From positions 2,827-66,826 of the forward strand of contig CAZWDN010000001.1 of the NCBI GenBank assembly GCA_964633125.1: a stretch of DNA of 64,000 bases. The letters run 5' to 3'. Shown one piece after another: positions 1-14,749 of the stretch. A program made the position numbers and the translations under genes. The notes beneath the pieces were generated by a model. The model saw only the letters and a list, made by a program, of their open reading frames with translations, was not told where the DNA came from and did not search any database. Every line of letters starts with the position of its first letter. Position 1 is the stretch's first letter. The stretch comes from an uncultured Pirellula sp. Its GTDB lineage: Bacteria > Planctomycetota > Planctomycetia > Pirellulales > PNKZ01.

Positions 1-439
1 GAAATGTGGAGAACTGCGCCGTGCCGTCGGGATCCTCCAACCGGCTGCCGACCATGGCGGCTTCAGGATGTTGTTCTAAGAAGTCGACCAGCGTTTGGAG
101 AGCACCCGGATAGACCTGCGTATCGGAATTGAGCAGCAGTACGAATTCCGGCTTGTCGGCTCCGGCGAGGGCCGGGCGAATCACTTCGTTATTGCCGTAG
201 GCAAAGCCGCCGTTGCGTGCGAGCGGCATCAACTGCGCCCACGCTTGCCACCCGCGCTCTTCGATGGCCGCGCCGATGCGGCGCACGGAATCGTCTCCCG
301 ATAAATTGTCGGTGACGACGACGCGCGAGTCGGCGGGCAGGCCCCCTTCCGCTGCCAGCGACCCTAGGCAGTCGATGGTGAGGGCCGGCGTGCGGTAGTT
401 GACGATAACGACGAGCAGCTTCAAGGACGAATCTCCCAC
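1..439 (-). CDS. Family 2 (GT-A fold) glycosyltransferase, N-terminal part only; the gene runs off the left edge
   Basis: Absent from the ORF track because it has no stop in the window. My reverse-strand translation from GTG at 439 reads VGDSSLKLLVVIVNYRTPALTIDCLGSLAAEGGLPADSRVVVTDNLSGDDSVRRIGAAIEERGWQAWAQLMPLARNGGFAYGNNEVIRPAL..FVLLLNSDT. VIVNYR, D-N-x-S-x-D and N-G-GFA-x-GNN are typical GT2 N-terminal motifs. The gene starts 13 nt after the stop of the 453..2357 gene on the same strand. Confidence 0.7.
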   Translation of the reverse strand, partial: MGDSSLKLLVVIVNYRTPALTIDCLGSLAAEGGLPADSRVVVTDNLSGDDSVRRIGAAIEERGWQAWAQLMPLARNGGFAYGNNEVIRPALAGADKPEFVLLLNSDTQVYPGALQTLVDFLEQHPEAAMVGSRLEDPDGTAQFSTF

Positions 440-452
440 GGCATTGCTTGGC

Positions 453-2357
453 TTACGAAGTGCTCGACGCCGGCACCAAATAGCGGGTCAGCAAATAACC
501 GGTTAGGGCTTGAAGCAAGGCGGTCCGGGGCGCGCGGCGCGAAAACGTGTGGTCCCCTTGCGGAATCGTCTCCAGATGCAGTTCGCCGCTACGCAGCCAT
601 TGCTTGGTTTCTCGCGGTGCATGGTACGCCATCACCGCGTGCCCGGGATCGTTCTCGGCGAGAAACATCGCGAGCCTGCGCCCCGCCGCCGCCGTGCGCG
701 CGAGGTCGGCCGCGAGGTTGTTGTCGGTCGGGTGACCGAGCACGGTCGGAGGAAACTGCGAGCGTTCGGTCGGCGATTGCTCGCGCTTCTGCACGAGATG
801 TCGCAGCCGACGCCCCAGCAATTTCACGGCGTCTATGTAACCGATGTCGGTCTTGCCGCGGAGAAACTTCCAAAGCTTACGAGCATTCGTGGCCCGCGCC
901 ATGCGGCAATGGTCCTGCATGAGCTTTTCCGCGCCGGAGGCGTCGAACGGCATGCCGGCTTCCCAATGGAACGTGAGCGGATTGATCAGCACGCTTTCGA
1001 TGAGCGTCGGGTCGGAAAGTTGGGCCGCCGATTGGAACGCGGCGTACGCTCCCGAGCAGAGCCCGACCAGCACGCAGCGCGTGACGCCGAATTGCTCGCG
1101 AAGTTCCCGAATCGCACGTTGTATGTCGTGAAATGCCGTGCTCGGATACGGATCGTTTTCTTGCTCAGGGTCGCGACACACGCTGTCGCCGAGGCCGTTG
1201 ACGTCGAGACGCAGGCAGCGGAATCCTTGGCTTGCCAAGTGGCGCGTGAGTTCGACGTAGATGCGTCCGGGCCCGACGTGGTTGGCCGCTCCGGCGTTGA
1301 GCACGATGACGGCCGGCAAATCTCCGTCGGTGTTCGTCGGTTCGACCAGAACGCCGAACAACTGCTCCGGGCCGATGCGCAGTACGCGCTCGTGGAGCGT
1401 GCGAATCTTTTCCGGATCGGCCGCCGGTGCGTACGAAACGATCGCTTGTGCCGGGCCGGCTTTCGCGACATCCGACTCCAGCGTGCCGGCACTCGGCACG
1501 AGGATATGCTCGCCAAGCCATTGAGCAATATCGCCGACGGCCTGCCGCGGAACGCGGCTAAAGTGCGGTTCGGCCATCATCTCCGCATAGCCCGGCGGCG
1601 AAAGATGCGTGACCGGAATTTCAAATTGTGCAAAACGCTCGACGAGGCGCTTGTCCGTGGGACCGACGACGAGCGCTTGCAAGCAGCTCAGTTGCTTCTG
1701 CAGCAGGTTGAGCTTCGTGAATTGCTCGGCGGTCTCTTCGCTCACGAGAAAGCCCGCGGCTTCGATGTCGCCGGCGGCGGCATCCGTCGGGCGCGGCCGG
1801 AGTTCGGTCATTTGCTCGATGGTCTGCATCTGTCGCATGAACGACTTACCGCATGTGACCGGCGCCCAGAGCACGAGATTGTCGCACTCGTCGGGCCCGA
1901 TCGCTTCGACGGCGAGCATCGCCCCCATGCGTAGACCGACGATACTGATGCGCCGGCAGCCGAGCGTGTTGCGCATCCATGCGATCGCGTCGCGAACGTT
2001 TTGATGCCAGGCGGCCCGGCGCGACGGATCGGCGTCGCTGCCGGCGGAATCGCCGGTGCCGTGCCAGTCGAAGCGCAGTGTGGGAATGCCCTGCCGTGCG
2101 ACGGCATCGGCCAGATGCCGCAAGCTGCGGTTGGCGTGCAGTTGTTCGAACCCGACCGGTGCGCAGATCAGAACGCCGTGGTCTACATGGCTCGCTTGCG
2201 GCGACATATGCAACCACGCGAGCAGCGGTTCGTTGCGGCTGGTCAGATAGAACGCCGTGCGCGCAACGTCGGATTGCTGCGAAGTGGTCCCCTTCGCAGC
2301 GGCGGACGTCAGCAAATGCTCCGTCGGCTCGGTAATGGTCAGCGACATACAGTGCAC
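453..2357 (-). CDS. Tandem alpha/beta-hydrolase-fold protein (two hydrolase halves, non-serine nucleophile elbows)
   Basis: The 634-aa ORF has two alpha/beta-hydrolase-like halves. The elbow positions read IVGLRMGAMLA (G141-L-R-M-G145) and LVGLCSGAYAAF (G432-L-C-S-G436). There is a 3-nt gap to the upstream GH2 gene. GTG at 2357 or ATG at 2348 are both possible starts. Confidence 0.7.
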   Translation of the reverse strand: MHCMSLTITEPTEHLLTSAAAKGTTSQQSDVARTAFYLTSRNEPLLAWLHMSPQASHVDHGVLICAPVGFEQLHANRSLRHLADAVARQGIPTLRFDWHGTGDSAGSDADPSRRAAWHQNVRDAIAWMRNTLGCRRISIVGLRMGAMLAVEAIGPDECDNLVLWAPVTCGKSFMRQMQTIEQMTELRPRPTDAAAGDIEAAGFLVSEETAEQFTKLNLLQKQLSCLQALVVGPTDKRLVERFAQFEIPVTHLSPPGYAEMMAEPHFSRVPRQAVGDIAQWLGEHILVPSAGTLESDVAKAGPAQAIVSYAPAADPEKIRTLHERVLRIGPEQLFGVLVEPTNTDGDLPAVIVLNAGAANHVGPGRIYVELTRHLASQGFRCLRLDVNGLGDSVCRDPEQENDPYPSTAFHDIQRAIRELREQFGVTRCVLVGLCSGAYAAFQSAAQLSDPTLIESVLINPLTFHWEAGMPFDASGAEKLMQDHCRMARATNARKLWKFLRGKTDIGYIDAVKLLGRRLRHLVQKREQSPTERSQFPPTVLGHPTDNNLAADLARTAAAGRRLAMFLAENDPGHAVMAYHAPRETKQWLRSGELHLETIPQGDHTFSRRAPRTALLQALTGYLLTRYLVPASSTS

Positions 2358-2360
2358 GTC

Positions 2361-4889
2361 CTAGGTCTGGTCGACGTCTACGGGAATGGTTAGTTCGGAG
2401 TCGAGATTCAAGGCTTCCAAGGTCGGGCGGAAAGCGCGGGCGACGTCGTCGCGAGGTGTGAACGTCACGACTTTCGTGCGAGTTGGGGCGAGGTGGAAGT
2501 AGTTGTCGTCCGGAAGGTATCCGTCGGCGTGCAGGCGGACCGTGTCGAGCAATACTTCGGTGTTCATGGTGACTTGATACGTGCACTCCATGCTGCGGAC
2601 GGCGGATGCCCGAACTGCAGGAGCCGAAACGCGGCCGGACGTAAGATGTCGCAAGAAGTGCACGGCTTCGCTGAGCACTTGGCCGTCGGATGCGTGCCAC
2701 CGGGCGACGACCACTTCGTGCTGCGGCGGACCGAAACGGTAGGCGTAGGCGGAATCGGTAAAACATCCGAGAAGGGCGTCGCCGCCGATCCGTTGCCGCG
2801 AGCGAGGGGCGAGCCGCACGGGGCTGCACGCACGCGCAATCATCGTGTTCGGCGACTTGAGCAGTTCGAACTCGATCATACCTTCGCAGAGTTGATCGGT
2901 TTCATTCGTGAGGTGCAGGTCGAAGCCGTTGAGGCCTTCGTCGGTGAGCGTGAGCTGCCGCGTTTGCCACGAGCGCTTGAGGTAGTAGTACGCGGCCTTC
3001 GGCAAACCGGTGGAATCGACGACGCCCCAGCCGGCTCCCGGCCAAAGGTCTTTATAGAACCACGTAAGCGCCCCGCCGCAACGCGAATGCGTACTTCGCC
3101 ACTCCGAGAAGGCCGCGGCCATCATTTCGCCCGTGACGGCTCGGCTCAATTCGAGGTAGCGCGGCATATCGAACGAGCGCAGTTGCGCCGGGTCGACGCC
3201 GAACGTCGCCCGGAGATAGTGATCGCGAACGTCTTCGAAGTCCCACCCTGCTCCGCCGTCGCGCGGCACTCGCTGCTTCCAGGTCGGATCGTGCAGCACG
3301 GGATGGCCGCCTCGCGTCACGGCGTAGATCGTTTCCGGCTCCGGAAGGTTCGCAAAGCCGAGGCACTCCGGCGTGAACTTGACATCGGCGCGGCGCAGAT
3401 CGGTCGTCTGTCGCAAATAGGCGCCGACTCCGTAGTAGTGCGTGATGCCGGTGTGTGTATGGAACGGCAGCACGCCGCCCGTCGGCGTCGACGGAACGTA
3501 AACCGTGCCCGGGTGCAACTCCGCGCAGAGTTCCGGCAGTTCGCGAGAGAACCAGTCGTTCGTCCATCGTTCGCGCGGCATCCCGAGCATTGCCGCTTGT
3601 TGCTCGATTTCGCTGTTGCCGCAGTATGCGACGACCGACGGATGCCGAGCGAGCCGCGTGAGTTGTTCGGTCGCTTCGGCGCGGATGTTCTCACGGAAGC
3701 CGGCGTCGTCGACCGGGTAATCCATGTTGGCGAACATGAAGTCCTGCCAAACGAGCAAGCCGAGTTCGTCGCAGAGTCGATAGAACGCTTCGCTCTCGTA
3801 TTGCATCGTGCCGCCGACGCGGAGCATGTTCGCTCCCGCGTCGCGGGCCAGCACTAGGTCGCGACGGAGCGCCCGTTCATCGCCCCCGCGCGACAGGAGA
3901 TCGCCGATGGTCCAGCACGCCCCGCGGCAGAAGACCTCCGCATCGTTGATGAATAGCGCAAAGCCGTCTTCGGTGCAGACTTCGACCTTGCGGAATCCGA
4001 GCGGCGTTTGCGGGTACTCGATGGTTTCGCCGTCGACTTCGAGCGTAAGCCGACAAGCGAGCAGATTCGGTGTGCCGTGCGTGTGCGGCGACCAAAGCGG
4101 AGCGTTCGGGATCTGCATTTCGCCCGTGATGTTCCAGCCGTCGGCGGTGGGCGTGATTGCTAGCGGCGCTTCGTGTTCGCCGACAAATATTGCCGCGATC
4201 TCCGGTGCGATCGGGCTGTACAACTTAGCGCTGATCATGACGATGCCGGTGGTGCCTTCAAGCGTCGGCGTGATCCGAAGACCATCGAGCAGTGCCGGGC
4301 CCGATTCAATGCGAACAACACGCCAAGGTCCGATAGCCGGAGCACAGGGCGCCCAGCCGGGAATGCGACCGACAAGCGATGTGCGATGCCATCGCAACTG
4401 CTGGTTGCGTACGAGGTTCGTTTTCCACCGCGGCCGCGGGCGTTTTTGCTTGAGCAACTCCGTGAGTGAGTGGAAGCAAAGCAGCAGCTCGTTTTCATCC
4501 TCCAACAGCGAGCCGACGCCGACTGAATACGCACGAAACATGTTGTCCGTGCTAAGAATCTTTCGGCCGTTCAGCCAGATGTCGGTCGAGGTCGCGAGGC
4601 CGTCGAAGCAAATGCGATAAGGCCGGCTGTCGTCGATGCTCGGGCCTGCGAACGTCGTACGGTACCACCACTCTTGAGCGTCGATGTCGGTCGGCTGAGC
4701 GAAATCCCACTCTCCCACTGCGTGGAGGGCTTGTGCAACGGTGCCCGGCACCAGCGCCGGCAACATGCGTCCGTCGCCCTCGGTAAAGCTTGGCGGCGTC
4801 GCTGCCCCCGGCAATCGCCCGAGCAAAGACCAGGGGCCGAGGGTCAATGCTTCGGCCCAAGCGGCCATGACGCTGAGTGACGTGTTCAT
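2361..4889 (-). CDS. Glycoside hydrolase family 2 protein (beta-mannosidase-like architecture)
   Basis: 842 aa. The N-terminal sugar-binding region contains WWYRTTF and DIWLNG. The TIM-barrel region contains VVAYCGNSEIEQ (acid/base-type N-x-E) and KFTPECLGFANLP (candidate nucleophile Glu). Amino-acid composition is balanced, unlike the overlapping Arg-rich shadow ORFs. Confidence 0.7.
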   Translation of the reverse strand: MNTSLSVMAAWAEALTLGPWSLLGRLPGAATPPSFTEGDGRMLPALVPGTVAQALHAVGEWDFAQPTDIDAQEWWYRTTFAGPSIDDSRPYRICFDGLATSTDIWLNGRKILSTDNMFRAYSVGVGSLLEDENELLLCFHSLTELLKQKRPRPRWKTNLVRNQQLRWHRTSLVGRIPGWAPCAPAIGPWRVVRIESGPALLDGLRITPTLEGTTGIVMISAKLYSPIAPEIAAIFVGEHEAPLAITPTADGWNITGEMQIPNAPLWSPHTHGTPNLLACRLTLEVDGETIEYPQTPLGFRKVEVCTEDGFALFINDAEVFCRGACWTIGDLLSRGGDERALRRDLVLARDAGANMLRVGGTMQYESEAFYRLCDELGLLVWQDFMFANMDYPVDDAGFRENIRAEATEQLTRLARHPSVVAYCGNSEIEQQAAMLGMPRERWTNDWFSRELPELCAELHPGTVYVPSTPTGGVLPFHTHTGITHYYGVGAYLRQTTDLRRADVKFTPECLGFANLPEPETIYAVTRGGHPVLHDPTWKQRVPRDGGAGWDFEDVRDHYLRATFGVDPAQLRSFDMPRYLELSRAVTGEMMAAAFSEWRSTHSRCGGALTWFYKDLWPGAGWGVVDSTGLPKAAYYYLKRSWQTRQLTLTDEGLNGFDLHLTNETDQLCEGMIEFELLKSPNTMIARACSPVRLAPRSRQRIGGDALLGCFTDSAYAYRFGPPQHEVVVARWHASDGQVLSEAVHFLRHLTSGRVSAPAVRASAVRSMECTYQVTMNTEVLLDTVRLHADGYLPDDNYFHLAPTRTKVVTFTPRDDVARAFRPTLEALNLDSELTIPVDVDQT

Positions 4890-4916
4890 CGGTTACGACT
4901 CCTCCACGTGTCGGTA

Positions 4917-5888
4917 TTAGAGGAATCGCTTCGCAAGACCGTCAGTCGTCGCTTGCCAGGTGCCGGCGAGTTCGTCGACCGGCGCGAGATCCAGCGGCTT
5001 TCTGCGCGCGATGGCCCGAGCCAGCTGAAACTGCAGCGTCTTCGCACCGATGGAAAGTGCAATAAATCCCGACGTGGCGTTTTCTAGGCCGTCGACGTGG
5101 TGTTCTTCAAGCCACTTTAGGTACGTTGCGGCACATTCAAAGCTTGCGCCGAATTGCCGAAGCGTGGCGAACGAGTATTGATGGAACATTTCTAGCGACG
5201 CGCCGGCGAGCCATTGCAGATCGGCGGCGAACCGTGCTTTAAACTTGTTGAACGGGTTTTCCGTCGGCAACCGGCACAGATGGCGACGCAGCACTTCGAG
5301 CGATGCGGCGATCAATCGCTCGCCGATCGGCGGCGCAGGGTTACGGCGTTTGACGATTTCCGCGTAAGGCGGCAGGACGTCCGGTGAGAAGTTCCCTGTC
5401 ATGCGGAAGACGTTGAGAAAATCGTCACCGGCGAGTTCGTAATAGCCCTGGCCATGAAAATAGCCGAGCCTTCGGGCGGCGACGTCGATCTCCATCGCGG
5501 CGACCGTCGATTTGACGTGCGCCGTGTGATAGGCCGTGCCTGCCGTATCGGGCAAGTAGTACGAATCGAGTTCGACCAGCATCGGCCGGCCAAGTCCAAG
5601 TTGCTCGTCGACATGAACTTCCAGCGGACGCCAAATCGCCAGCTCTTGCACGTCGAGCCCGAAGAGTTCTTCGAGATCGGCATGCGGAAACTTGAAGAAG
5701 GTCCACTGGTCCCCCTCAAAGTCGATGGTCGTCGTGAACGGCATCGCCGCGATCGGCTCGAAGCCCCACGCGTGAAGCAGTTCGATCCAAACGTCGACGT
5801 AGCAGTTCGTTTCGGCCCAACTCCGCTCCTGTGTGTGGAGCCGATGCCGTTGATGGTCGGTCGGGCTAAGAGTGAGTTCGCCGAGCAT
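4917..5888 (-). CDS. DUF1839-like protein (partner family of amino acid:carrier-protein ligases)
   Basis: I chose the start at the internal ATG (M61 of the 383-aa track ORF; MLGELTLSPTDHQ...). The upstream extension is Arg-rich and lies inside the ligase gene. The ATG overlaps the ligase stop by 1 nt (TAATG). The sequence ETNCYVDVWIELLHAWGFEP..DFEGDQWTFFKFP matches my memory of PF08893; this needs an HMM check. Confidence 0.6.
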   Translation of the reverse strand: MLGELTLSPTDHQRHRLHTQERSWAETNCYVDVWIELLHAWGFEPIAAMPFTTTIDFEGDQWTFFKFPHADLEELFGLDVQELAIWRPLEVHVDEQLGLGRPMLVELDSYYLPDTAGTAYHTAHVKSTVAAMEIDVAARRLGYFHGQGYYELAGDDFLNVFRMTGNFSPDVLPPYAEIVKRRNPAPPIGERLIAASLEVLRRHLCRLPTENPFNKFKARFAADLQWLAGASLEMFHQYSFATLRQFGASFECAATYLKWLEEHHVDGLENATSGFIALSIGAKTLQFQLARAIARRKPLDLAPVDELAGTWQATTDGLAKRFL

Positions 5889-6817
5889 TAGAGACCGAGC
5901 GTGTTCTTGACGTCGTGAGGCCAAAGGTCCGGATCGAAGCCGTGCTTCATGAAGAGCGCCAAAGCGATGCGCTCCAGGCCGAAGCCGATGCACGAAGTGT
6001 GGGCATCTTCGCCGTCGGGCGTGCGAATGCCGAACTTGTGGCCGAAGTGATTTTGGTGGTAGTTGCAAGAGGTGATCGCCGTCGGCTTCTCGGCCGAGGC
6101 AACTTCGTGTACGAGTTCGAACTTGAGGACCTGCTCAATTTGCGCTGCCGCCATCACCTTGCCGCCCCGGCCGAAGAATGGATCGTTGGCGACGACCGCT
6201 TCCGCTTCGAGGCCGACGTGGTTGAGGATTTCGGTGCCGAGCTTGAGCCAATATTCGCGATGCGCGAGCGCCTGTTCGGCCGTGCCGAGGCGAACAAACT
6301 CCCGTTGCCGGAAAATCTGCAGCCGGGCCGGATCGAGCGACGGCTCATGTCGAAACACGAACGAACGCAAGTCGACCGTGCGCCCTTCGGCCGGCAGGGT
6401 GCCTTTGGCCGTCGGATAGAGCGGGTAGCAGGCTGCGGGGGTGAGCATGATCTGGGTCGGGGTCAGGTGCTCGGTCCAGTCTTCCCCCCTCTTTTTCTTA
6501 TCGAGCATCTTCAAATGGTCGCGCTCGCCGCCGGTGAACGAATGCACCGACCCCAAGAGATCGGGGAAGTTGTCGATGTGCGTCATCTGCAGGTAGTGCG
6601 CCCGATTCATAATCGCCGGAAAGCGCATCACCTCGGCCTGCAAATGGCTGCCGCGCACGGTGACGTACCGCTCGAAGCGTTCGATCACGTCTTCAAACGC
6701 GCCGCTGAAGCCGTAGAGCCCGTCGACTTCCATCGAAATGAGAAGTCCGGCCTCGACGAGTCGGTCGCGGCAGCGGCGGTACGTTTCCGTCAGCGATTCG
6801 GTGGCGATGCACGACAT
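5888..6817 (-). CDS. Amino acid--[acyl-carrier-protein] ligase (tRNA-domain-less class II aaRS / methanogen-type SerRS homologue)
   Basis: 309 aa, consisting of the catalytic core only. It has a class II motif 2-like SFVFRHEPSLDPARLQIFRQREFVRLG and a motif 3-like SCIGFGLERIALALF. Cys residues in TPAACYPLY and TSCNYH/HTSCIGFG are compatible with a Zn site. It sits between the ACAD-like and DUF1839 genes and close to a small carrier protein. Confidence 0.8.
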   Translation of the reverse strand: MSCIATESLTETYRRCRDRLVEAGLLISMEVDGLYGFSGAFEDVIERFERYVTVRGSHLQAEVMRFPAIMNRAHYLQMTHIDNFPDLLGSVHSFTGGERDHLKMLDKKKRGEDWTEHLTPTQIMLTPAACYPLYPTAKGTLPAEGRTVDLRSFVFRHEPSLDPARLQIFRQREFVRLGTAEQALAHREYWLKLGTEILNHVGLEAEAVVANDPFFGRGGKVMAAAQIEQVLKFELVHEVASAEKPTAITSCNYHQNHFGHKFGIRTPDGEDAHTSCIGFGLERIALALFMKHGFDPDLWPHDVKNTLGL

Positions 6818-6822
6818 AAGCG

Positions 6823-8022
6823 TTAGTGTCCTTCTCGGTGCGCGAGCAACATCGTGGCGTTAAGTTTCGTAATGCGGTCGTTATTTACCATCAGCGCGGC
6901 TCCGTAGGCGTCGCGCAGGTGACGGGCCAAGCTGAATTTCGAATCGTTGCGGTAGCCGGAGATGCCGTTGATCAGTAGGGCCTTGCCCACGATTTCGACG
7001 ATCTTCTGCGAGCAGGACAACTTCAGGTTGTTGGTACGAATCGGAAAACCGAAGCCTTCGAAAGCCGCGTCGCAAGTCGACGTGAGTTTCTCGTGATACT
7101 CGCGAGCGAGCGAATAGACGTTGTGCCGCATCTCTTGCAGCATCAAGTCGACCTCGGCCAAGCGAACGGCTGACAGCGGTGTTTCACCGGGCGTCTTGCG
7201 AGCTTCCACCCGTACGAACGCCCGCGAGCGATTGACGGCGTCGGCGGCAATGCCGGACCAGAGCGCTCCCCAGACGATATGCGAATAGGGGTGCATAGTC
7301 TCGGCGAGAATCTCGTTGAACGACGTCGGCAGAATCTGCTCGACGTTTCCTTGAGCGGTCAGCGTGAAGCCGGAGCTGCACGTGCCGCGGAAGCCCATGG
7401 TGTCCCAGGTCGAGAGGGGCTCGGCCTGATATTCGCCCCGGCGCACCAGGAGGTGGACTTGATCGGTGGCCGGAGATTCCGGCGAGCGGCGGGCCGTCAC
7501 GAGGATGTCGTCGGCATGCTCGCCGTACGAAATAACGGGGGCCTTCTTCGTGACCTTGAACGTCTCGCCGTCGACCTCCACGGCGCAGATGCTGGAGAGC
7601 AAATCGCCGCCGGTGCCGACTTCCGTGGTCGCCGAGGCCATGAGCCGTTGCTCTTCGACGAGCTGCCGTAGGTAGCGGCGGAAGTAGTCGGATTCTTGCG
7701 CATGATGGACGACGCACGCGACTTGGATGCAGTGCATCGCGTAGATCATCGCGGTCGAACCGCAATAGTGGCCGAGCGTCTCGCAAATCTTGGTGGTCTC
7801 GACGATGTTCAGTCCGAAGCCGCCGTATTCCACGGGGACATAAGCGCTCAAGAACTTCCCTTCGCGCAAGGCGGCGAACGCTTCTACGGGAAAGCGAGCG
7901 TCTTCGTCGACCGAAGCGGCATACGGCGCCAGCGCCGTTTCGCCGATGGCGTGAGCTTGCGCGAGCAAATCAGCGAACTCGGCCGGCGAAATGCGCTCGT
8001 TACGAACTATCGTCGTGATCAT
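6823..8022 (-). CDS. Acyl-CoA dehydrogenase family flavoprotein (probably acting on a carrier-protein-bound substrate)
   Basis: Start set at ATG 8022 (MITTIVRNERISPAEF...); the longer track ORF overlaps the ACP gene. It shows the three-domain ACAD pattern: PVEYGGFGLNIVETTKI, ATTEVGTGGDL..WDTMGFRGTCSSGFTL and LARHLRDAYGAALMVNNDRI. There is a 5-nt gap to the ligase gene. Confidence 0.75.
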   Translation of the reverse strand: MITTIVRNERISPAEFADLLAQAHAIGETALAPYAASVDEDARFPVEAFAALREGKFLSAYVPVEYGGFGLNIVETTKICETLGHYCGSTAMIYAMHCIQVACVVHHAQESDYFRRYLRQLVEEQRLMASATTEVGTGGDLLSSICAVEVDGETFKVTKKAPVISYGEHADDILVTARRSPESPATDQVHLLVRRGEYQAEPLSTWDTMGFRGTCSSGFTLTAQGNVEQILPTSFNEILAETMHPYSHIVWGALWSGIAADAVNRSRAFVRVEARKTPGETPLSAVRLAEVDLMLQEMRHNVYSLAREYHEKLTSTCDAAFEGFGFPIRTNNLKLSCSQKIVEIVGKALLINGISGYRNDSKFSLARHLRDAYGAALMVNNDRITKLNATMLLAHREGH

Positions 8023-8048
8023 GTATCGTGCTCGGGGAGAGTGGCGAA

Positions 8049-8315
8049 CTAGCGGGCCAGTTTGGCGACCGCTTCCGAAATCGAAGCGATGGTGCGGAAC
8101 GTTCCTCGGCTCAACATCGATTCGGGGAACTCGATGTCGAAGCGTTCTTCCAGGGCGAGCATGAGGCCGACCGTGGCGAGCGACGTGAGGCCGATCGAAT
8201 AGAGGTCGCGCTGCGGATCGAGAGCGCTCACGTCGACCGGCACGCCGATGTGCTCGGCGACGACTTCCTTCACGGATTCCAGGTCGACCGCGGCCGGCGA
8301 GTTCGTAGGAGTCAT
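8049..8315 (-). CDS. Acyl/aminoacyl carrier protein (phosphopantetheine-binding)
   Basis: 88 aa. ACP-like helix II region DLYSIGLTSLATVGLMLALEERFDIEF, with Ser in G-L-T-S-L as the likely 4'-phosphopantetheine site. It is the first gene of the operon, 26 nt upstream of the ACAD-like gene. Confidence 0.8.
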   Translation of the reverse strand: MTPTNSPAAVDLESVKEVVAEHIGVPVDVSALDPQRDLYSIGLTSLATVGLMLALEERFDIEFPESMLSRGTFRTIASISEAVAKLAR

Positions 8316-8555
8316 ACGGTAGATCTTCCGGTGAAAAATTGGCGGTGAAAAAGGCGTGGAAACGTTCGCTCGGGCACCGCGCCAAAGGGCGTGGTGAGCA
8401 GCGCGCGCGGTAAGACGCCTGATTGGATAAAACCTACGTCGAAAACTGCGGGATTGCGTAGTTTACGAAACCGTTAGAGTCGCCTTGTCCGGTTCGTGTC
8501 GACCGGCGCGGTCGTAGCGATCGTAGGTGCGGGCCGACGTCGCGTACGAGGCGTT

Positions 8556-8963
8556 CTAGCTACGCGGTTGCCGAGGGATGATCCAAGCGGAGTCGTGTTT
8601 GGTCATGCCGACATGCGGATAGTAGGTCTGCGCCTTCGGGGCGGCGAGTAGGATTATCGCCGTATTCAGGCCGGCTTCCAAATGCGTCAGGCGAATGAGT
8701 TCCCGGCCTATTCCCCGCCCTTGATACGCTTCATCGACGGCTAGATCGGAGAGGTACGTGCAGAACGCAAAGTCGCTGATGGCGCGAGAGATTCCGACGA
8801 GCCGCCCCGCCTCGCGCGCCGTAACGATGATATCGGCCTTTCGCAGCATCGTTTCGATGGTCGGTCGATCATCGACGGGCCTGCGCTCGGCCAACGTGGA
8901 GCGAACGAGCACGTCGATAAATTCGTCGGCGCTGAGCTGCGGTTCGGTTTGATACTCAATCAT
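8556..8963 (-). CDS. GNAT family N-acetyltransferase
   Basis: 135 aa. The acetyl-CoA binding motif A region reads [19 protein letters not shown] (Q/R-x-x-G-x-G). Size and layout are typical of a GNAT. Confidence 0.75.
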
Positions 8964-9191
8964 TGGCGGCGCAATCCAACAAGTGTTGAAGGCGTTCGTT
9001 ACAAGCGTACGTCGTGGAACGCCGTTTGTCGGGCGATTGCGCTTACGCCGGTACGCCTAAAACGCCGGTGCTGATTGGGAAAACCCCTAAAACCCGTCCC
9101 GCGCAAATTCGCCCACCCGCCTGCGAAGGCTAAGATATCGGCACTCGGGACCGTTATCAGGACGGCGACATTGAAAGAGAACATCGGCTTC

Positions 9192-9527
9192 ATGATCGGC
9201 GAACGCGGTATTCATCTAAGCTCGGCGCTCGCCTTTCGATTTCCGGTCGCCGTTTTGGCGTGCCTGTTCGGCTGCAACGCACCGAGCGACGGCGCCTTGC
9301 AGGGATATGTGGAAGGGGAATACGTCTATGTCGCTTCTTCGCTGCCGGAAACCTTGAAATCGTTGCACATTTCGCGCGGCGATCAGGTTAAAGTCGACGA
9401 ACCGCTATTCGAACTCGACGATACCCCGCAAAAGGCGGCGGTGAATGAGACGCAACGCCGACTCGCCAATGCCAAGTCGACCTGGGAAGACTTAAAGAAA
9501 GGCCGCCGCCCGTCGGAGATCGCCGCG
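9192..9527 (+). pseudogene. HlyD/membrane-fusion-protein family adaptor, N-terminal fragment only
   Basis: A lipoprotein-type signal (VAVLACLFGC) is followed by the lipoyl-like segment GYVEGEYVYVASSLPETLKSLHISRGDQVKVDEPLFELDD and the start of the coiled coil (..KKGRRPSEIAA). Similarity stops abruptly near 9527. The frame then runs into unrelated lower-GC sequence and the IS element, and the rest of the adaptor is absent. Confidence 0.6.
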
Positions 9528-9754
9528 TTCAGACGGGACAACTGCCGTCAACCTCGGAATCATGGCAGTGACTTGCAAGTTAATTCTTGCAGTAACGTTT
9601 TGAATACTCATCACGCTGTCGCGATTTCCACCTCCACTCATCGTAACCCTATGAGCATCGCCACGATTCTCGATGTCGGGCGTGACGTGCCCCCACCAAA
9701 CGAGTCCGGCCGCAAGGTGATAAACTTGCGACCCTCACTGGAAGGGAGCTTGTC

Positions 9755-10033
9755 ATGGGTCGAAAGCGATTGTCTGTAGAGCAGATCATTCAGAAGCTGC
9801 GAGAAGCGGAGTTAGAGTTGGCTCGCGGTCAGACGGTGCCGCAAGTCGTGAAGAAGCTCGGCGTGACGGAGCAGACTTACTACCGCTGGCGAAAAGAATA
9901 CGGCGGGCTGCGGACGGACCAAGCGAAGCGGTTCAAGGAGCTTGAGCAAGAGAACGCCCGCTTGAAGCGGCTGTTGGCCGACACCGAACTCGATAAGGCA
10001 ATTCTGCGTGAGGCCGCCTCGGGAAACGTCTGA
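9755..10033 (+). CDS. IS3-family transposase OrfA (HTH plus leucine zipper)
   Basis: 92 aa: MGRKRLSVEQIIQKLREAE..GVTEQTYYRWRKEYGG..LEQENARLKRLLADTELDKAILREA. This is the classic IS3 OrfA pattern. Confidence 0.85.
   Translation: MGRKRLSVEQIIQKLREAELELARGQTVPQVVKKLGVTEQTYYRWRKEYGGLRTDQAKRFKELEQENARLKRLLADTELDKAILREAASGNV
10021..10027 (+). other. Candidate programmed -1 ribosomal frameshift heptamer G_GGA_AAC joining IS3 orfA to orfB
   Basis: The X_XXY_YYZ slippery sequence GGGAAAC lies 4 nt before the orfA stop. In the -1 frame the reading continues GKRLSPIGRRRVVEHVRETLGVSERRA..., the expected OrfAB junction. Confidence 0.55.
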
Positions 10034-10479
10034 GCCCGATCGGTCGGCGACGCGTCGTCGAACATGTGCGTGAGACGCTCGGCGTGAGCGAACGTCGAGC
10101 GCGTTACATGCTGGGACAGTCGCGGGCGACACAACGTCGTCCGCGACAAGTTCCCGCCGACGAACCGCGATTGGTCGGGCGGATCACGGCGCTGGCGAGC
10201 GACTACGGTCGCTACGGCTATCGCAGAATCACGGCCCTTTTACGCCGTAAAGGCTGGCGTGTGAACCATAAACGAGTCGAACGTCTTTGGCGTCGCGAGG
10301 GCTTAAAAGTGCCGCAGCGGCAGCGGAAGCGACGGCGGCTGTGGTTCAACGACGGTTCGTGCATACGACTGCGACCGAAGCATCGCGATCACGTCTGGAG
10401 CTACGACTTCGTGCAGGCCCGAACGCACGACGGTAGGTCGTTCCGAATGTTGACGGTGATCGACGAGTTCACTCGGGAA
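10021..10479 (+). pseudogene. IS3-family transposase OrfB, truncated within the integrase (DDE) core
   Basis: -1 frame relative to orfA. It contains RITALLRRKGWRVNHKRVERLWRREGL (HTH_21-like) and the start of the rve domain with the first Asp (WSYDF). Only about 140 of the expected roughly 280-300 residues are present before the sequence becomes unrelated. Confidence 0.7.
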
Positions 10480-10707
10480 CCCGATTCGAGATCGCGAGCG
10501 AAGCGAGTCGCACCGAGAATGTTTTCTACACCACGTCGCGACGCTCTTCGAGTAAATGCGTCATTGACGCACTTGCAGTCAGAAACGATGCGAAATCCCG
10601 CGACAACGTGCGAAGCCTTGCGAGTGTGATTTGAAGGGGTAGAATTGCGCACAGCCGCGGGAAATACGGTGTTTTCGCGGGACTGTCGAAGCATTTCGAC
10701 AAGCTAG

Positions 10708-10737
10708 GGATCACAGGTTCGTGTCCTGTATCGCCCA
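10708..10737 (+). other. tRNA 3'-end-like fragment (T-arm plus 3' acceptor strand), possible integration-site remnant
   Basis: The sequence GGATC ACAGG TTCGTGT CCTGT ATCGCCC A has a 5-bp T-stem, a 7-nt TTCGTGT loop, a 7-nt acceptor strand and a discriminator. No matching 5' acceptor strand (GGGCGAT), D-arm or canonical anticodon arm lies upstream, so it is not an intact tRNA gene. Confidence 0.3.
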
Positions 10738-10857
10738 TTGATTGGATTCACCGGAACCGCGCGGGACTGCGATACAAAATCGCAACTTCCGTGCGGTTTT
10801 CGCGTTTCCGGACGTCGCCTGACGCAATCCATCGTCGTCCGACGGAGCGCGGCAGGG

Positions 10858-12543
10858 TCATTTCGGGGCGGGACGTAGCTCTAACTTCCGGCCGGACCAA
10901 TAGCCGACGAGTTCGTCGCCGCGAATCCTCAGTTTCAAGTCAGTGCCTCTGTGGGCCGTGTCCCCGTTCATGGGCTTCGTCTTGTCCGACTTGTGCCCGC
11001 CCATCAGTTGCCATTGGTAAGGACACAAATAGGGATCGTTCTCATAAACCGAGCGGACGTCGAAGTATTGCTCCTGCTCCGGCGCGTCGCCGTATTTGAG
11101 CACCGCGACGAAGAAATGGGCATGCCCGCGATCGAGAAGCGACAATTCGATCGGCGCGACGTCGTCTTCGTCGCGGTACCACCGGCCGGTCCAGCGTTTG
11201 CCGGCAACGAACGTACTTCGAACGAGAGCTTCCGTTTCTTCTCTCGGCAGAATCGTCGATCGTTCGCCCGTCTCTTGCAGCGGCGCCTTGCGCTGATCGA
11301 CGTGGAATTCGTAGCCGTCCCCCGCCGAGACGATTTTCAACCAAGGCACGTCGTCCCACCCCATGGGGCCGTCGGGATCCTCGTGTTCCTTGCCGAACAG
11401 GATCGCACCATGATGATCGGCGCTGCGGACGCCGAGGTAGAGCGCCGGGAGAGCGGGCTGCGCGCCCGCTTGACGGTCGATCGCCCTAGATTCCCGCTCG
11501 ATGAAATAATACGCGTTGCGCAGCATGGGATCGTCGGTCCGTTGCACGACGGCCACGCCTTGGTACCCATATATGTAACGTCCGAAGTCGATTTCCATCC
11601 GCCACTTTTGCGGCCGACCGGAAGCGTCGGGCATCTCGAACGACACGACTTTTTTATCGAGCCGGTGAAACCCTCGGCTTAGCGCCTGCAGATTCTTAAA
11701 GGCGATTTGCTGGGCCTCCTCTTTCCATTCAAAAGCTTTCTTCGACAGAGCGGCGTAGCGGGTCGCGTATTCGTTGAATTGCGCCGATTGCAGATCGATG
11801 AGAATCGCACCGCCGGGTACGGCGTCATATTTTCGCGTCGAGAGGTCGTACTCGTCGGCGCAGCAATAATCGTTGCTCTCGTAGTTCGTCGTTCGAAAGT
11901 GTCCGTTGAGCCGATTGGTTTGGTGCGACTTCTCGCGAATCCAAGCCCGACCGTCCCCCGACACATAGCGGAATGCATAACTGTCGGCGGGCCGCACGCC
12001 TTTCAACCGAAAATCGGAAAAGACCCAGCCGAGACCTTCGCGCCGAGCTCGGCAGGTGCCGTCGAACATGCATTCGTCGCCGGTCGAGCACGCCTTACGG
12101 AACATGCGTTGCACGGGACGAGGCGGCGGTACCTCCTTCGCAAGCTTCTCGGCCAAGTCGGGCGCCGCGTGCCTCAACTCTTCCAGCGGCCGGTCCAAGG
12201 ATCTACTGATAAACTCATCCTGCCGGGCGATCTTTTGAGGATCGATTTCATAATAGATCGTGTCGCGATATTTGCCTTTCACGACGAAGTCCAAGGTCAG
12301 GACGCCGGGGTCTTTCTCCTCGGAGCCGCGAATGTCCAAGCCGACGTACTCGAAAGGCAAGTCGGCTTGCAATTCGAGCGGCTTGATTTGATCGGCCAAA
12401 CCGTACGCGTAGAAATCGGAAGGCTGCAAAAATTGCAGAGCGAAGTGACCGCCGACTCGTAAAACCAGCCCGACAAGCACCAGCCCGCCGATAAACAGCG
12501 CACTCGGTCCACGTTTCGGCGTTGCTTCGGTGACGGTCTGCAT
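10858..12543 (-). CDS. Hypothetical N-terminally membrane-anchored protein, no family recognised
   Basis: 561-aa ORF with balanced composition, whereas the overlapping opposite-strand ORFs are Arg-rich. One N-terminal hydrophobic helix (ALFIGGLVLVGLVLRVGG). I recognise no motif. Confidence 0.6.
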   Translation of the reverse strand: MQTVTEATPKRGPSALFIGGLVLVGLVLRVGGHFALQFLQPSDFYAYGLADQIKPLELQADLPFEYVGLDIRGSEEKDPGVLTLDFVVKGKYRDTIYYEIDPQKIARQDEFISRSLDRPLEELRHAAPDLAEKLAKEVPPPRPVQRMFRKACSTGDECMFDGTCRARREGLGWVFSDFRLKGVRPADSYAFRYVSGDGRAWIREKSHQTNRLNGHFRTTNYESNDYCCADEYDLSTRKYDAVPGGAILIDLQSAQFNEYATRYAALSKKAFEWKEEAQQIAFKNLQALSRGFHRLDKKVVSFEMPDASGRPQKWRMEIDFGRYIYGYQGVAVVQRTDDPMLRNAYYFIERESRAIDRQAGAQPALPALYLGVRSADHHGAILFGKEHEDPDGPMGWDDVPWLKIVSAGDGYEFHVDQRKAPLQETGERSTILPREETEALVRSTFVAGKRWTGRWYRDEDDVAPIELSLLDRGHAHFFVAVLKYGDAPEQEQYFDVRSVYENDPYLCPYQWQLMGGHKSDKTKPMNGDTAHRGTDLKLRIRGDELVGYWSGRKLELRPAPK

Positions 12544-12777
12544 CGTCGGCTCACCGACTCGGAACAGGAAAAGAAAGCTCAGGGCACGAGTAGCTTATTT
12601 CCCGCGGGCGCTACCGTCCATGGCGCCGCTCAACCGGGACGTGGCCGGAGTTGGTCCGCGGGGCTCCTCACATCCCATCCGCCACGGTTCCCATCGTGCG
12701 TGGAGAAACGGGCTGTATACTGTCGCTCCGCGGATCTACCGATTCGCGTAACCGGGAAGCCTTTGGCCGAATTTGCG

Positions 12778-14286
12778 ATGAAACGCTTCATAGCTCTCTT
12801 GGTCGCCTTATGCTGCGCCTCGGTTTGCGCCGCCGACCAGCCCCACATACTCGTCGTCCTGGCGGATGATCTCGGTTTCGGCGACCTGGGTTGCTACGGC
12901 AACGCGGACGTGAAGACCCCGCATCTCGACGCCTTCGCGCGGCAAGGCCTGCGCTTGACGCAGTGCTATTCGGCCGGGGCCAATTGCTCGCCGTCGCGGG
13001 CCGGGCTGATGACCGGGCGCACGCCGTATCGCGTCGGCGTTCATAGTCAGATTCCGTTTCTCTCGCCGATGCATCTGCCGGCTTCGGAAACGACCGTGGC
13101 AAGCTTGTTGCGCGCGGCAGGTTACGACACGTGTCAGAGCGGCAAGTGGCACCTCAACGGAATGTTCAATCTCCCGGGTCAGCCGCAGCCGGCCGATCAC
13201 GGGTTTCGTCGTTCTTTCGCCACGCAGAACAACTGTCTGCCGAATCACCGCAACCCGTACAACTTCGTGCGCGACGGCATTCCGCAAGGCCCGCTCAAAG
13301 GTTATGCGGCGCAGCTCACGGCCGACGAAGCGATCGGTTGGTTACGCCGTGAGCGGGAAGCGACGAAGCCGTTTTTTCTCTACGTCGCGTTTCACGAACC
13401 GCATGAACCGATTCGCTCCGCGCCCGAGTACGAAGCGCTATATGACTTGCCAGACGATCCGAGTCGCCGCGCTTACTTAGCCAACATCACGCAAATGGAC
13501 GCGGCCTTCGGACGCCTGATGTCGGCGCTCGACGAACTCGGCCTGTCCGACGACACGCTCGTCTGGTTCACGAGCGACAACGGCCCGGCGCGCACCAAAT
13601 GGCACGCCTCGGGTTCGACCGGCGGTTTGCGCGGCTTCAAAGGCCAACTCTGGGAAGGGGGCATTCGCGTGCCGGGGCTGATTCGATTTCCAGGTCGCGT
13701 CGCCGCCGCCCGCGAGAGCGACGTGCCGGTTTGCGGCGTCGACCTCCTGCCGACCGTCTGCGAACTGGTCGGACTCCAGCCGCCTGCCGGCGTCACGCTC
13801 GACGGTACGAGCGTCGCCCCGCTCTGGAGAGGCGACGTCGTTCGCCGCGAGAAGCCGCTGTATTGGCAATTCAATCTTGCCTCCGGCGAAGAAAAGCTGG
13901 CGCTGCGCGACGGCGATTGGAAAATCGTCGCCCGACTTTCGCTACCGTTAGGGCCGCAACGGGCCGACATCACCGCGGAAGCGATGCATGTGCTCAAGCA
14001 CGCCGAGCCGGCGTTGCCGGAGCTTTACAATCTGGCCGACGATCCGGCGGAAACTCGCAATGTGGCCGATCGCTTTCCCGAGCGCCTCGCAACGATGCGT
14101 TCGTCGCTCATCAAGGCGTTTCACGACGTCCGCCGTGAAACACCCGTTTGGCCGCGGTTCCAAGATCCGGGCTATGAAGCCCCGCGTATTCATTGGCCCG
14201 ACTACACGGCACCCCGCGGAGGTTCCGGCCATGCTTCGGATGCTCGGCGCCGCGCGACAACGGCCGGTCAGGGAACGGGCGGGTAA
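12778..14286 (+). CDS. Sulfatase (arylsulfatase A family), secreted
   Basis: Start at MKRFIALLVALCCASVCA (signal peptide). Sulfatase signature DDLGFGDLGCYGN. Formylglycine motif CSPSRAGLMTGR (C-x-P-x-R). GKWHLNG is also present. Confidence 0.85.
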   Translation: MKRFIALLVALCCASVCAADQPHILVVLADDLGFGDLGCYGNADVKTPHLDAFARQGLRLTQCYSAGANCSPSRAGLMTGRTPYRVGVHSQIPFLSPMHLPASETTVASLLRAAGYDTCQSGKWHLNGMFNLPGQPQPADHGFRRSFATQNNCLPNHRNPYNFVRDGIPQGPLKGYAAQLTADEAIGWLRREREATKPFFLYVAFHEPHEPIRSAPEYEALYDLPDDPSRRAYLANITQMDAAFGRLMSALDELGLSDDTLVWFTSDNGPARTKWHASGSTGGLRGFKGQLWEGGIRVPGLIRFPGRVAAARESDVPVCGVDLLPTVCELVGLQPPAGVTLDGTSVAPLWRGDVVRREKPLYWQFNLASGEEKLALRDGDWKIVARLSLPLGPQRADITAEAMHVLKHAEPALPELYNLADDPAETRNVADRFPERLATMRSSLIKAFHDVRRETPVWPRFQDPGYEAPRIHWPDYTAPRGGSGHASDARRRATTAGQGTGG

Positions 14287-14749
14287 TCACAACCGACGGC
14301 GGCGCTTCCGAGCAGGCGACGTTTTTACGGCTTCAACAACGAATCCTTTGCTCGCCGGCGTCCCCTCGCTTTATGATAGGAGCGGCCGCCGTTCTTTGCG
14401 ATCTTTTCGCGTAATCACTGATGAAGCCATGGGAGAGCGACTGCTCGAAATCATTTCCTCTGCGAGTTATTTTTGAGAGATCGGGTCGCATGTCGGTGCG
14501 ATGTTCATTGTTCGAAGATTCGCCCCCACACGCGTTGCCCGGCCCGGCGATTGAAACGCACAGAGACCGAATCCCAAAGACCGCATTGCGCGGGCTGGTT
14601 GCGCCGCATCGCACCTGAGCGGGCGATCCCAATCACCGCATTCATCCACGACATTACGAACTTGGTCGTTCTCACTCTTGGCAACGTGACTGATGACTCC
14701 GACTTTTGCCGCCTTCCTTGCGGCCCACTAGTTAACCCCGGTTAAACGC

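Follow-up and report, generated by a model that had tools for sequence, protein, structure and literature searches.

Seven genes on the minus strand, at the left end of a 64,000-nucleotide stretch of DNA from an uncultured Pirellula sp. (GCA_964633125.1, contig CAZWDN010000001.1, positions 2,827 to 66,826; hereafter the window), very probably form one operon that contains a relative of the amino acid:[carrier protein] ligases (aa:CP ligases). We propose, at a little better than even confidence, that the products of this operon load a small amino acid onto a carrier protein, modify it there and transfer it to a sugar-containing acceptor that is linked to an exported glycan. An earlier note, made from the sequence of the window alone, had suggested that a carrier-bound amino acid is delivered to a sugar, polysaccharide or glycolipid, and delivery to a sugar is still the best-supported reading, given the predicted fold of the DUF1839 protein and the glycan genes that recur beside the cassette.

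The idea has a history that the earlier note, which took the gene combination to be undescribed, had missed. In a note added in proof, Aravind, de Souza and Iyer (Biol Direct 2010, PMC2922099) described the neighbourhood of the ligase of Mocibob et al. as an acyl carrier protein (ACP), a redox enzyme, a highly conserved protein exemplified by Atu2574, a glycosidase and liposaccharide genes, and predicted that amino sugars at the cell surface receive an amino acid, with Atu2574 as the amide-forming enzyme and the redox enzyme altering the aminoacyl group. It was the only relevant result of our literature search on the Agrobacterium tumefaciens and Bradyrhizobium locus tags. Ozhelvaci and Steczkiewicz (J Biol Chem 2023, PMC10318531) report that DUF1839 is constantly accompanied by GH2, the aminoacyl-ACP ligase, an acyl-CoA dehydrogenase (ACAD) and ACP. 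Because Aravind et al. made the same prediction, the suggestion of the earlier note is a published prediction. The gene combination itself is already known, and the window adds its reach into the Planctomycetota and the recruitment of a GT2. New here are the fold link of DUF1839, the retention of the GH2 glutamates, the dead N-terminal domain and Cys-Asp-His site of the hydrolase, and an ACAD-like protein without the catalytic glutamate.

A pattern scan with an alignment of the ligase, taking one genome per species, found a ligase relative in 590 of the 600 stretches listed, so that at least 590 species, in eight or more phyla, encode one. Neighbourhood counts were made on the best 80 loci in tblastn searches with the window proteins; these loci come from the Planctomycetota, Acidobacteriota, Gemmatimonadota, Chloroflexota, Myxococcota, and Gamma-, Beta- and Alphaproteobacteria. 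Throughout them the genes for ACP, ACAD-like protein, ligase, DUF1839 and GH2 follow one another in one order on one strand. ACAD and DUF1839 genes are present in 79 of the 80, and GH2 in 77 of the 78 with room for it, one locus lacking it. The cassette proteins are 50-60% identical across phyla, and their spread is wide and vertical; DUF1839 alone comprises more than 7,000 cluster representatives, and the same six genes stand in the RefSeq annotation of Azospirillum and Mycetohabitans plasmids. The closest named relatives of the window proteins are from metagenome-assembled genomes (MAGs) of Pirellula and Pirellulaceae.

Since the GH2 gene is as conserved and colinear as the ligase gene, and its product keeps its catalytic glutamates, it is a core component of the cassette. 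Seventy loci are informative about the tandem hydrolase gene, and 51 of these have it no more than 10 kb away; it is the immediate neighbour in the same orientation in 21 and in the opposite orientation in 13, sits further downstream in 15 and is found upstream in 2. The remaining 10 of the 80 loci do not show whether it is present, since GH2 is missing there or lies at the end of the contig or outside it. The conserved core thus comprises five to six genes, with GH2 universal and the hydrolase a frequent companion, and not the four that the earlier note had supposed. Of the three genes whose co-variation with the core it had proposed to test, GH2 co-varies, the hydrolase frequently does so, and GT2 does not; among the loci compared GT2 is present only in L007 and L008 and absent from the more than 80 others. 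The window holds a Pirellulaceae copy of a widespread cytoplasmic cassette with a lineage-specific GT2 appended, and this copy is an ordinary member of a known family.

Part of the cassette also occurs by itself. On plasmid p-LAD4 of Priestia aryabhattai (L013, 8154-16713), genes for AcpS, ACP, ACAD-like protein and ligase are followed by those for a DMT exporter, an ATP-grasp enzyme, a type II thioesterase-like protein, the alanine permease AlaP and an alanine racemase, with no DUF1839 or GH2. From this variant operon, ACP, ACAD-like protein and ligase seem to make up a portable module, whose substrate in Priestia would be alanine.

Predicted chemistry of the cassette

The ligase scores 428 bits against NF005479 (cutoff 357), compared with 69 and 54 bits against the models of seryl-tRNA synthetase (SerRS; cutoffs 611 and 490). 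It aligns to Bll0957 (PDB 4H2W/3MEY) at E = 1e-69 with about half of the aligned residues identical, and to the archaeal SerRS 3W3S at 1.6e-12. At 309 aa it has no N-terminal tRNA-binding domain, and its match to SerRS proteins begins at their residue ~305 of ~520. These matches place it, as the earlier note had proposed, among the aa:CP ligases, as a class II aminoacyl-tRNA synthetase (aaRS) core closest to the methanogen-type SerRS; a bona fide SerRS is ruled out by hidden Markov model scores and domain architecture. Three residues, C130, E158 and C276, are invariant in 84 of 84 homologues and align with identical residues of Bll0957; they are the candidate zinc ligands of the active site.

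Two genes upstream, the ACP scores 83.5 bits against NF005480 (cutoff 72), and its phosphopantetheine site, Ser45, lies in a G42-x-x-S45 motif that is invariant in 82 of 82 sequences. It is probably the dedicated carrier protein that the earlier note had seen in it, and we predict that the ligase loads it. Mocibob et al. (2010, 2013) reportedly paired the ligases Bll0957 and Bll6282 of Bradyrhizobium with the carrier Bsr0959, and Atu2573 of Agrobacterium with Atu2571. According to a review, the characterised homologues load Gly or Ala and also form aminoacyl-Cys dipeptides in vitro; a 2022 review still called the biological role of aa:CP ligases unknown. As a first step, then, the ligase of the window would adenylate a small amino acid (Gly, Ala or similar) and thioesterify it onto the phosphopantetheine of Ser45, a reaction with precedent in its direct homologues.

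For the ACAD-like protein the PDB holds nothing closer than ordinary ACADs at E ~1e-16, and its best NCBIfam matches reach 45-95 bits against cutoffs of 430-650. The position of the glutamate in the Y-E-G-T motif is V/I379 in 82 of 82 homologues (context R370-D-A-...-M-[IV]379-[SN]-N-D), and the alternative base position on helix G, used by the IVD/LCAD type, reads by eye as S246/H247. A hydrophobic residue in place of the glutamate argues for an ACAD-fold flavoprotein with a different chemistry rather than a canonical ACAD. Its plausible role, as a second step, would be to oxidise the tethered aminoacyl group at C-alpha/N (to a 2-imino and then a 2-oxoacyl thioester) or to oxygenate it at nitrogen.

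Transfer would fall to the DUF1839 protein, for which we searched the PDB with Foldseek using an AlphaFold2 model (pLDDT 85.3, pTM 0.86). The model is bipartite, with a papain-like a/b N-domain (strands 78-181) and a C-terminal helical bundle (helices 189-322). All 18 matches at E <= 0.001, plus one at 1.8e-3, are AziU2/U3, CtaG or CcbD, and they are full-length (304-364 columns, TM 0.5-0.64); the next tier, cathepsins, lies at E > 0.2. AziU2/U3 match at E = 7e-8 (TM 0.62), CtaG at E = 2e-6 (TM ~0.6), and CcbD at E 5e-5 to 6e-4 (TM 0.5-0.6, 12-15% identity; PDB 7YN1, 7YN2, 9DKR), the matched CcbD entries including complexes with methylthiolincosamide and with the carrier-protein domain of CcbZ. 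Cys29, which opens helix 29-40, is invariant in 85 of 85 sequences within W-x-E-T-N-C-Y-x-D; H145 (85 of 85), H124 (82 of 85), D108 and D114 are also conserved. Apart from PF08893, DUF1839 matched no Pfam family at E <= 10, including BtrH_N (PF14399) and DUF6005 (PF19468), and a profile of 36 DUF1839 sequences matched no PDB chain at E <= 10, so that DUF1839 is a separate family within the fold class.

Ozhelvaci and Steczkiewicz (PMC10318531) had already classed DUF1839 as papain-like in fold, with a C-(T/S)-H site, and as a remote relative of DUF6005. CtaG joins two carrier-bound substrates through an amide bond. It defines a class of papain-like ligases that depend on carrier proteins, to which AsbE and BtrH (Gude et al., Chem 2026), and also MllDE, belong. 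The carrier-protein-dependent ping-pong chemistry of CtaG- and CcbD-type enzymes is documented (PMC12865890, PMC12945683): in CcbD/LmbD a Cys accepts the amino acid from its carrier protein, and an amino sugar then receives it on its amine. BtrH moves an ACP-bound aminoacyl chain onto an aminoglycoside. On the model, we predict that DUF1839 is a carrier-protein-dependent papain-fold transacylase and the off-loading enzyme of the cassette; the basis for a carrier-protein donor is its gene linkage to ACP and ligase in 79 of 80 loci. In this third step DUF1839 would take the acyl group onto Cys29 and pass it by a ping-pong mechanism to an amine or hydroxyl of the sugar acceptor, as CcbD, BtrH and AsbE do. 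If DUF1839 is structurally a transacylase of the BtrH/CtaG/CcbD type, the analogy with butirosin biosynthesis drawn in the earlier note holds.

The nearest solved structures to the GH2 protein are beta-mannosidases (PDB 5N6U, E = 7e-66), and its catalytic glutamates, E427 (G-[GN]-S-E) and E508 (F-x-x-E), are invariant in 78 of 78 sequences; we regard it as a putative beta-mannosidase-like enzyme with its catalytic residues intact. The tandem hydrolase has two a/b-hydrolase domains in its AlphaFold2 model (pLDDT 80.6). In the C-terminal domain the Cys elbow to which the earlier note had pointed, G-x-C431-x-G, is present in 55 of 55 homologues, together with D567 in 51 and H600 in 54 of the 55. 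In the N-terminal domain the residue at the nucleophile elbow is R, G or S, which makes that domain a pseudo-enzyme. The fold search returned generic esterases and lipases, with the acyl-ACP thioesterase LuxD at rank 21, and is uninformative on function. In the fourth step, GH2 and the Cys-Asp-His domain would trim, proof-read or further transfer the acyl-glycoside.

A 968-aa homologue of the hydrolase in a Pirellula sp. MAG (P0123) was considered as a hydrolase-GT2 fusion and rejected, as it carries a ~336-aa N-terminal extension instead. Probable causes of the extension are an erroneous gene call, a frameshift or the loss of the GH2 stop codon.

The acceptor and rival products

The fourth step would be completed by the GT2 of the window, or by GT4s and a Wzx-type flippase in Rhizobium and the Bep genes in Burkholderia, which may link the product to an exported glycan. 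In Rhizobium (L064, 15663-18974; also L053) the gene order is GH2, GT4, a fusion of a Wzx-type flippase (Polysacc_synt_3) with the tandem hydrolase, and GT4. The fusion protein is 1103-1115 aa long, with ~12 transmembrane segments and the flippase domain at its N-terminus, and, as a Rosetta-stone fusion, we take it to connect the hydrolase with the export of lipid-linked glycans. In Burkholderia cenocepacia NCTC13227 (L073, 4395-20870) the five-gene cassette lies between two regulators, with a Crp/FNR regulator and a priming sugar transferase on one side and a VpsR-type sigma-54 activator, then ManC and a beta-helix protein, on the other. By an equivalence of locus tags that we infer, this layout appears to match BerA, BerB and Bcam1340/1339 of the Bep exopolysaccharide locus; our literature search found no paper on Bcam1343-1348, the tags between the BerA- and BerB-like regulators. 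The structure of Bep was solved after extraction with 0.3 M NaOH, by NMR in NaOD, and under such alkaline extraction base-labile acyl groups would have been lost. Among 98 downstream open reading frames (ORFs) at 33 dereplicated loci, the commonest Pfam families are GT4, flippase, GT2, polysaccharide deacetylase and ABC-2 transporters, each in few loci. The glycan theme, then, is recurrent in unrelated lineages and is not universal.

No transmembrane segment or signal peptide was predicted in any of the seven operon proteins. We predict that all seven are soluble and cytoplasmic, which means that any surface glycan must be modified before export.

Several observations weigh against our proposal, and some of them speak for its main rival, an exported soluble aminoacyl-glycoside or aminoacyl-amine natural product (antibiotic-, siderophore- or signal-like), which we consider unlikely but to be taken seriously. 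In such a pathway DUF1839 would acylate a free amino sugar or amine, and GH2 would remove a protecting or carrier sugar or give self-resistance. The characterised structural relatives of DUF1839 all make small-molecule natural products, not envelope glycans, and its relatives of known function all belong to secondary metabolism (azinomycin, closthioamide, lincosamides, butirosin, petrobactin). The soluble, cytoplasmic nature of all the cassette proteins suits a small molecule as well. Only a minority of loci are flanked by glycan genes (5 GT4 among the 98 downstream ORFs of the 33 loci), most cassettes standing alone. In A. tumefaciens a fused ABC exporter comes directly after GH2, and the trio on the Priestia plasmid is accompanied by an exporter (DMT), besides an ATP-grasp ligase and the type II thioesterase-like protein. 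Other points against our proposal concern its enzymes: the relation of DUF1839 to CcbD and CtaG is structural only, with no link between sequence profiles; its published C-(T/S)-H site is non-canonical and shifted (PMC10318531); the presence of two Cys enzymes, DUF1839 and the hydrolase, blurs the division of labour; and 19 of the 70 informative loci have no tandem hydrolase nearby.

However, the Wzx-type flippase fusion and GT4s of Rhizobium point to a glycan rather than to a free natural product, as do the position of the Burkholderia cassette inside the Bep exopolysaccharide regulon region, the GT2 of the window and the recurrent polysaccharide deacetylases. A wide and vertical spread at 50-60% identity across phyla is also atypical for a specialised metabolite cluster.

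Two further rivals are less likely than a natural product. In one, first put forward by Mocibob et al., the cassette is a minimal thiotemplated line for peptides, in which a CtaG-like DUF1839 joins units derived from Gly or Ala and the sugar enzymes are only loosely associated. The amides that its structural neighbour CtaG forms between two carrier-bound substrates fit such a line, and so do the aminoacyl-Cys dipeptides that a review records for the ligase homologues in vitro. We nevertheless find it improbable, with one carrier protein per cassette and a GH2 that belongs to the core and keeps its glutamates; Aravind et al. (PMC2922099) argued against a peptide product on like grounds.

More improbable still is lipid or protein processing, or a pathway that breaks down or salvages an imported glycoconjugate. 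Ozhelvaci and Steczkiewicz (PMC10318531) tabulated the neighbourhood under 'fatty acid/phospholipid protein processing', an ACP with an ACAD-like protein is typical of lipid metabolism, the hydrolase fold resembles lipases, esterases and the acyl-ACP thioesterase, and GH2 enzymes are normally catabolic. Against this, the ligase family loads amino acids and not fatty acids, the ACAD-like protein has no base for chemistry of the beta-oxidation type, the core has no transporter, lipid-synthesis or beta-oxidation partners, and ATP-consuming loading is hard to square with catabolism. An anti-phage defence system was also considered and rejected, PADLOC giving only a generic GH2 match.

Within the proposed transfer to a sugar-containing acceptor, a more specific form can be put forward tentatively, at clearly less than even confidence: DUF1839 attaches oxidised Gly or Ala, as an unusual N- or O-acyl group such as glyoxylyl, pyruvoyl or N-hydroxy-aminoacyl, to an amino sugar in a matrix glycan or a lipid-linked one. 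If this is true, it would be a very widespread sugar decoration, present in the species and phyla counted above and overlooked by alkaline polysaccharide work-ups, and it would answer a question open since 2010, what aa:CP ligases are for. The cassette is found in symbionts and pathogens of plants and in B. cenocepacia, a cystic-fibrosis pathogen whose copy stands beside a biofilm polysaccharide locus. The assignment of DUF1839 to the transacylases makes the function testable in vitro, as one member of the class acylates an amino sugar, and the invariant catalytic residues of GH2 and the Cys-hydrolase back the same test. The unsolved role of the aa:CP ligases is better attacked in tractable hosts (Agrobacterium, Azospirillum, Burkholderia) than in the organism of the window.

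Operon layout and surroundings

The ORF list of the window contains the seven same-strand genes with the coordinates that the earlier note had given, and Pfam and NCBIfam scans of all seven proteins agree with the families it had named (Table 1). The genes are tightly packed, with spacings of 26, 5, -1, 27, 12 and 28 nt along the operon. No terminator-like site was found at any gene boundary, and there were fewer such sites than in shuffled sequence. For the hydrolase and the GT2, gene callers on identical metagenome contigs chose ATG 2348 and TTG 424 as starts, and an exact-protein look-up with the GTG-start hydrolase gave no match.

Table 1. Genes and other features of the operon and its upstream flank, in window coordinates
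Feature	Position	Strand	Family match or remark
ACP (carrier protein, 88 aa)	8049-8315	-	PP-binding PF00550; NF005480
ACAD-like flavoprotein (399 aa)	6823-8022	-	Acyl-CoA_dh_N and Acyl-CoA_dh_1 pass thresholds
Putative amino acid:[carrier protein] ligase (309 aa)	5888-6817	-	NF005479
DUF1839 (323 aa)	4917-5888	-	PF08893, E = 3e-121
GH2, beta-mannosidase-like (842 aa)	2361-4889	-	Glyco_hydro_2_N2, Ig_mannosidase
Tandem a/b-hydrolase	453-2348 (631 aa, ATG); 634 aa if GTG 2357	-	N half TIGR03101-like, C half TIGR03100-like
GT2, 5' part only, cut by the window edge	<1-439; likelier start TTG 424	-	PF00535 Glycos_transf_2
Non-coding leader before the ACP gene, 240 bp	8316-8555	-	no ORF of its own
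Conserved leader motif TTTTCGACGTAGGTTTTA	8428-8445	-	common to window, L007, L009 and L014
GNAT N-acetyltransferase gene directly upstream	8556-8963	-	Pfam Acetyltransf_10/_7/_1

Where the operon ends can be told from its nearest relative. Locus L007, whose DUF1839 is 87% identical to that of the window, has the same seven genes, the last of them a 320-aa GT2 to which the GT2 fragment of the window is 89% identical, and these are followed by a convergent gene for a Ser/Thr kinase. In L009, a relative at 74% identity, only the first six of the seven genes are present, GT2 being absent. Contigs that carry an identical DUF1839 all stop ~300 nt into the GT2, and since they break there the end of the operon has to be taken from L007. 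As the operon of L007 ends with GT2, that of the window very probably comprises seven genes and does not continue past GT2; the remark of the earlier note that the operon runs on past the window edge holds only in so far as the edge cuts GT2. GT2 is a lineage-specific last gene, appended to the cassette, and the only feature specific to the window.

Six of the contigs identical to the window (L001-L006, from Logan) are independent assemblies from one study, all ending ~300 nt into GT2. The shared breaks hint at strain-level heterogeneity, or at repeated sequence shortly past the window's left end.

At the other end, the 240-bp non-coding leader that the earlier note had marked is as described; it begins after the stop codon of the GNAT gene. 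A riboswitch or leader RNA was considered and rejected: a search of positions 1-10000 of the window gave no Rfam match at E <= 1, and the leader is poorly conserved outside one short motif. This motif, of the form TTTT(C/T)GACGTAGG(T/A)TTT, stands upstream of the ACP gene in several Planctomycetota whose remaining leaders are divergent, and it is a candidate promoter or operator.

The GNAT gene itself is possibly an accessory gene outside the conserved cassette. A homologue stands upstream of the ACP gene only in L007 (6930-7337, 93% identity) and L016 (7691-8107, 77% identity), so that a small GNAT precedes the cassette in three Pirellulales loci; an Azospirillum plasmid carries a GNAT gene 2 kb downstream, which may be chance. 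In the Bep locus, Bcam1341, beside BerB, is also annotated as a predicted acyltransferase, a parallel that may again be chance.

Upstream of the GNAT gene, on the plus strand, lie remnants of an IS3-type transposase (HTH_Tnp_1 at 9755-10033, HTH_21 at 10066-10629), among which no integrase core was found. The flank appears rearranged, because L007 has an ABC-2 transporter operon where the window has these remnants. A 561-aa ORF at 10858-12543 (minus strand) has no Pfam match. Still further upstream, 4-8 kb from the operon, a sulfatase (12700-14286) and a polysaccharide pyruvyl transferase (14750-16018) are encoded on the plus strand; they could be extra glycan-modifying capacity nearby, or coincidence.

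Comparison with known systems

The transfer of a small amino acid from a carrier protein to the envelope is familiar from DltABCD, which D-alanylates teichoic acids, and from AlmEFG, which adds glycine to the lipid A of Vibrio cholerae; these systems use ANL-family loaders and membrane transferases of the MBOAT or LPLAT type. The likeness to our cassette is one of logic, an analogy only: a small amino acid is placed on a dedicated carrier at the expense of ATP and would then go to an envelope glycopolymer or glycolipid. The Dlt and Alm systems have no redox enzyme or glycosidase, whereas the cassette has an aaRS-like loader and no membrane protein in its operon. No homologues of DltB, DltD or AlmG were found here, and the match of the ACP to the DltC model is weak (30 bits, cutoff 68).

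Oxidation of a tethered amino acid has its parallel in the aminomalonyl- and hydroxymalonyl-ACP extender pathways (ZmaD/J/G/I, FkbH-K), in which an amino or hydroxy acid on a stand-alone ACP is oxidised, while tethered, by an ACAD-like flavoenzyme, and the product feeds a polyketide synthase (PKS) or nonribosomal peptide synthetase (NRPS). Our cassette differs in having neither PKS nor NRPS, and its ACAD-like protein is not a close relative.

The tandem hydrolase recalls hydrolases 1 and 2 of the exosortase-A (EpsH1) systems, which are described as always paired and as standing beside an ACP-loading enzyme in exopolysaccharide loci. Its N half resembles hydrolase 2 (TIGR03101, 113.2 bits against a cutoff of 202.75) and its C half hydrolase 1 (TIGR03100, 119.8 against 168.45), and to this extent the likeness drawn in the earlier note stands. 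However, both halves score below the cutoffs, the two are fused here in one polypeptide, the loader is aaRS-like instead of an acyl-CoA ligase, and the annotated part of the window (1-16018) showed neither exosortase nor PEP-CTERM genes. By these profile scores the hydrolase is a relative of the exosortase-A hydrolases and not a member of their families.

Among the papain-fold enzymes, CcbD/LmbD of lincosamide biosynthesis share with DUF1839 a full-length structural match and an N-terminal catalytic Cys; they differ in that CcbD has a Cys-His-Glu triad and receives its donor from an NRPS A-domain, not from an aaRS-like ligase. CtaG, AsbE, BtrH and MllDE, like AziU2/U3, share the papain-like N-domain and C-terminal helical bundle. 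DUF1839 differs from the CtaG/AsbE/BtrH class in being a separate Pfam family, more conserved and more widely spread, which Gude et al. do not mention, and in its partners, an aaRS-like loader, an ACAD-like protein and GH2 where that class has ATP-grasp or NRPS-like ones.

Closest of all are the Bradyrhizobium and Agrobacterium systems of Mocibob et al., which share with the window the NF005479 family, the truncated architecture, the three candidate zinc ligands and the adjacent carrier protein. The A. tumefaciens locus (L049) also has the order ACP-ACAD-ligase-DUF1839-GH2. It continues with an ABC exporter and has no nearby hydrolase, whereas the window, from a planctomycete, carries a co-directional hydrolase gene and an appended GT2.

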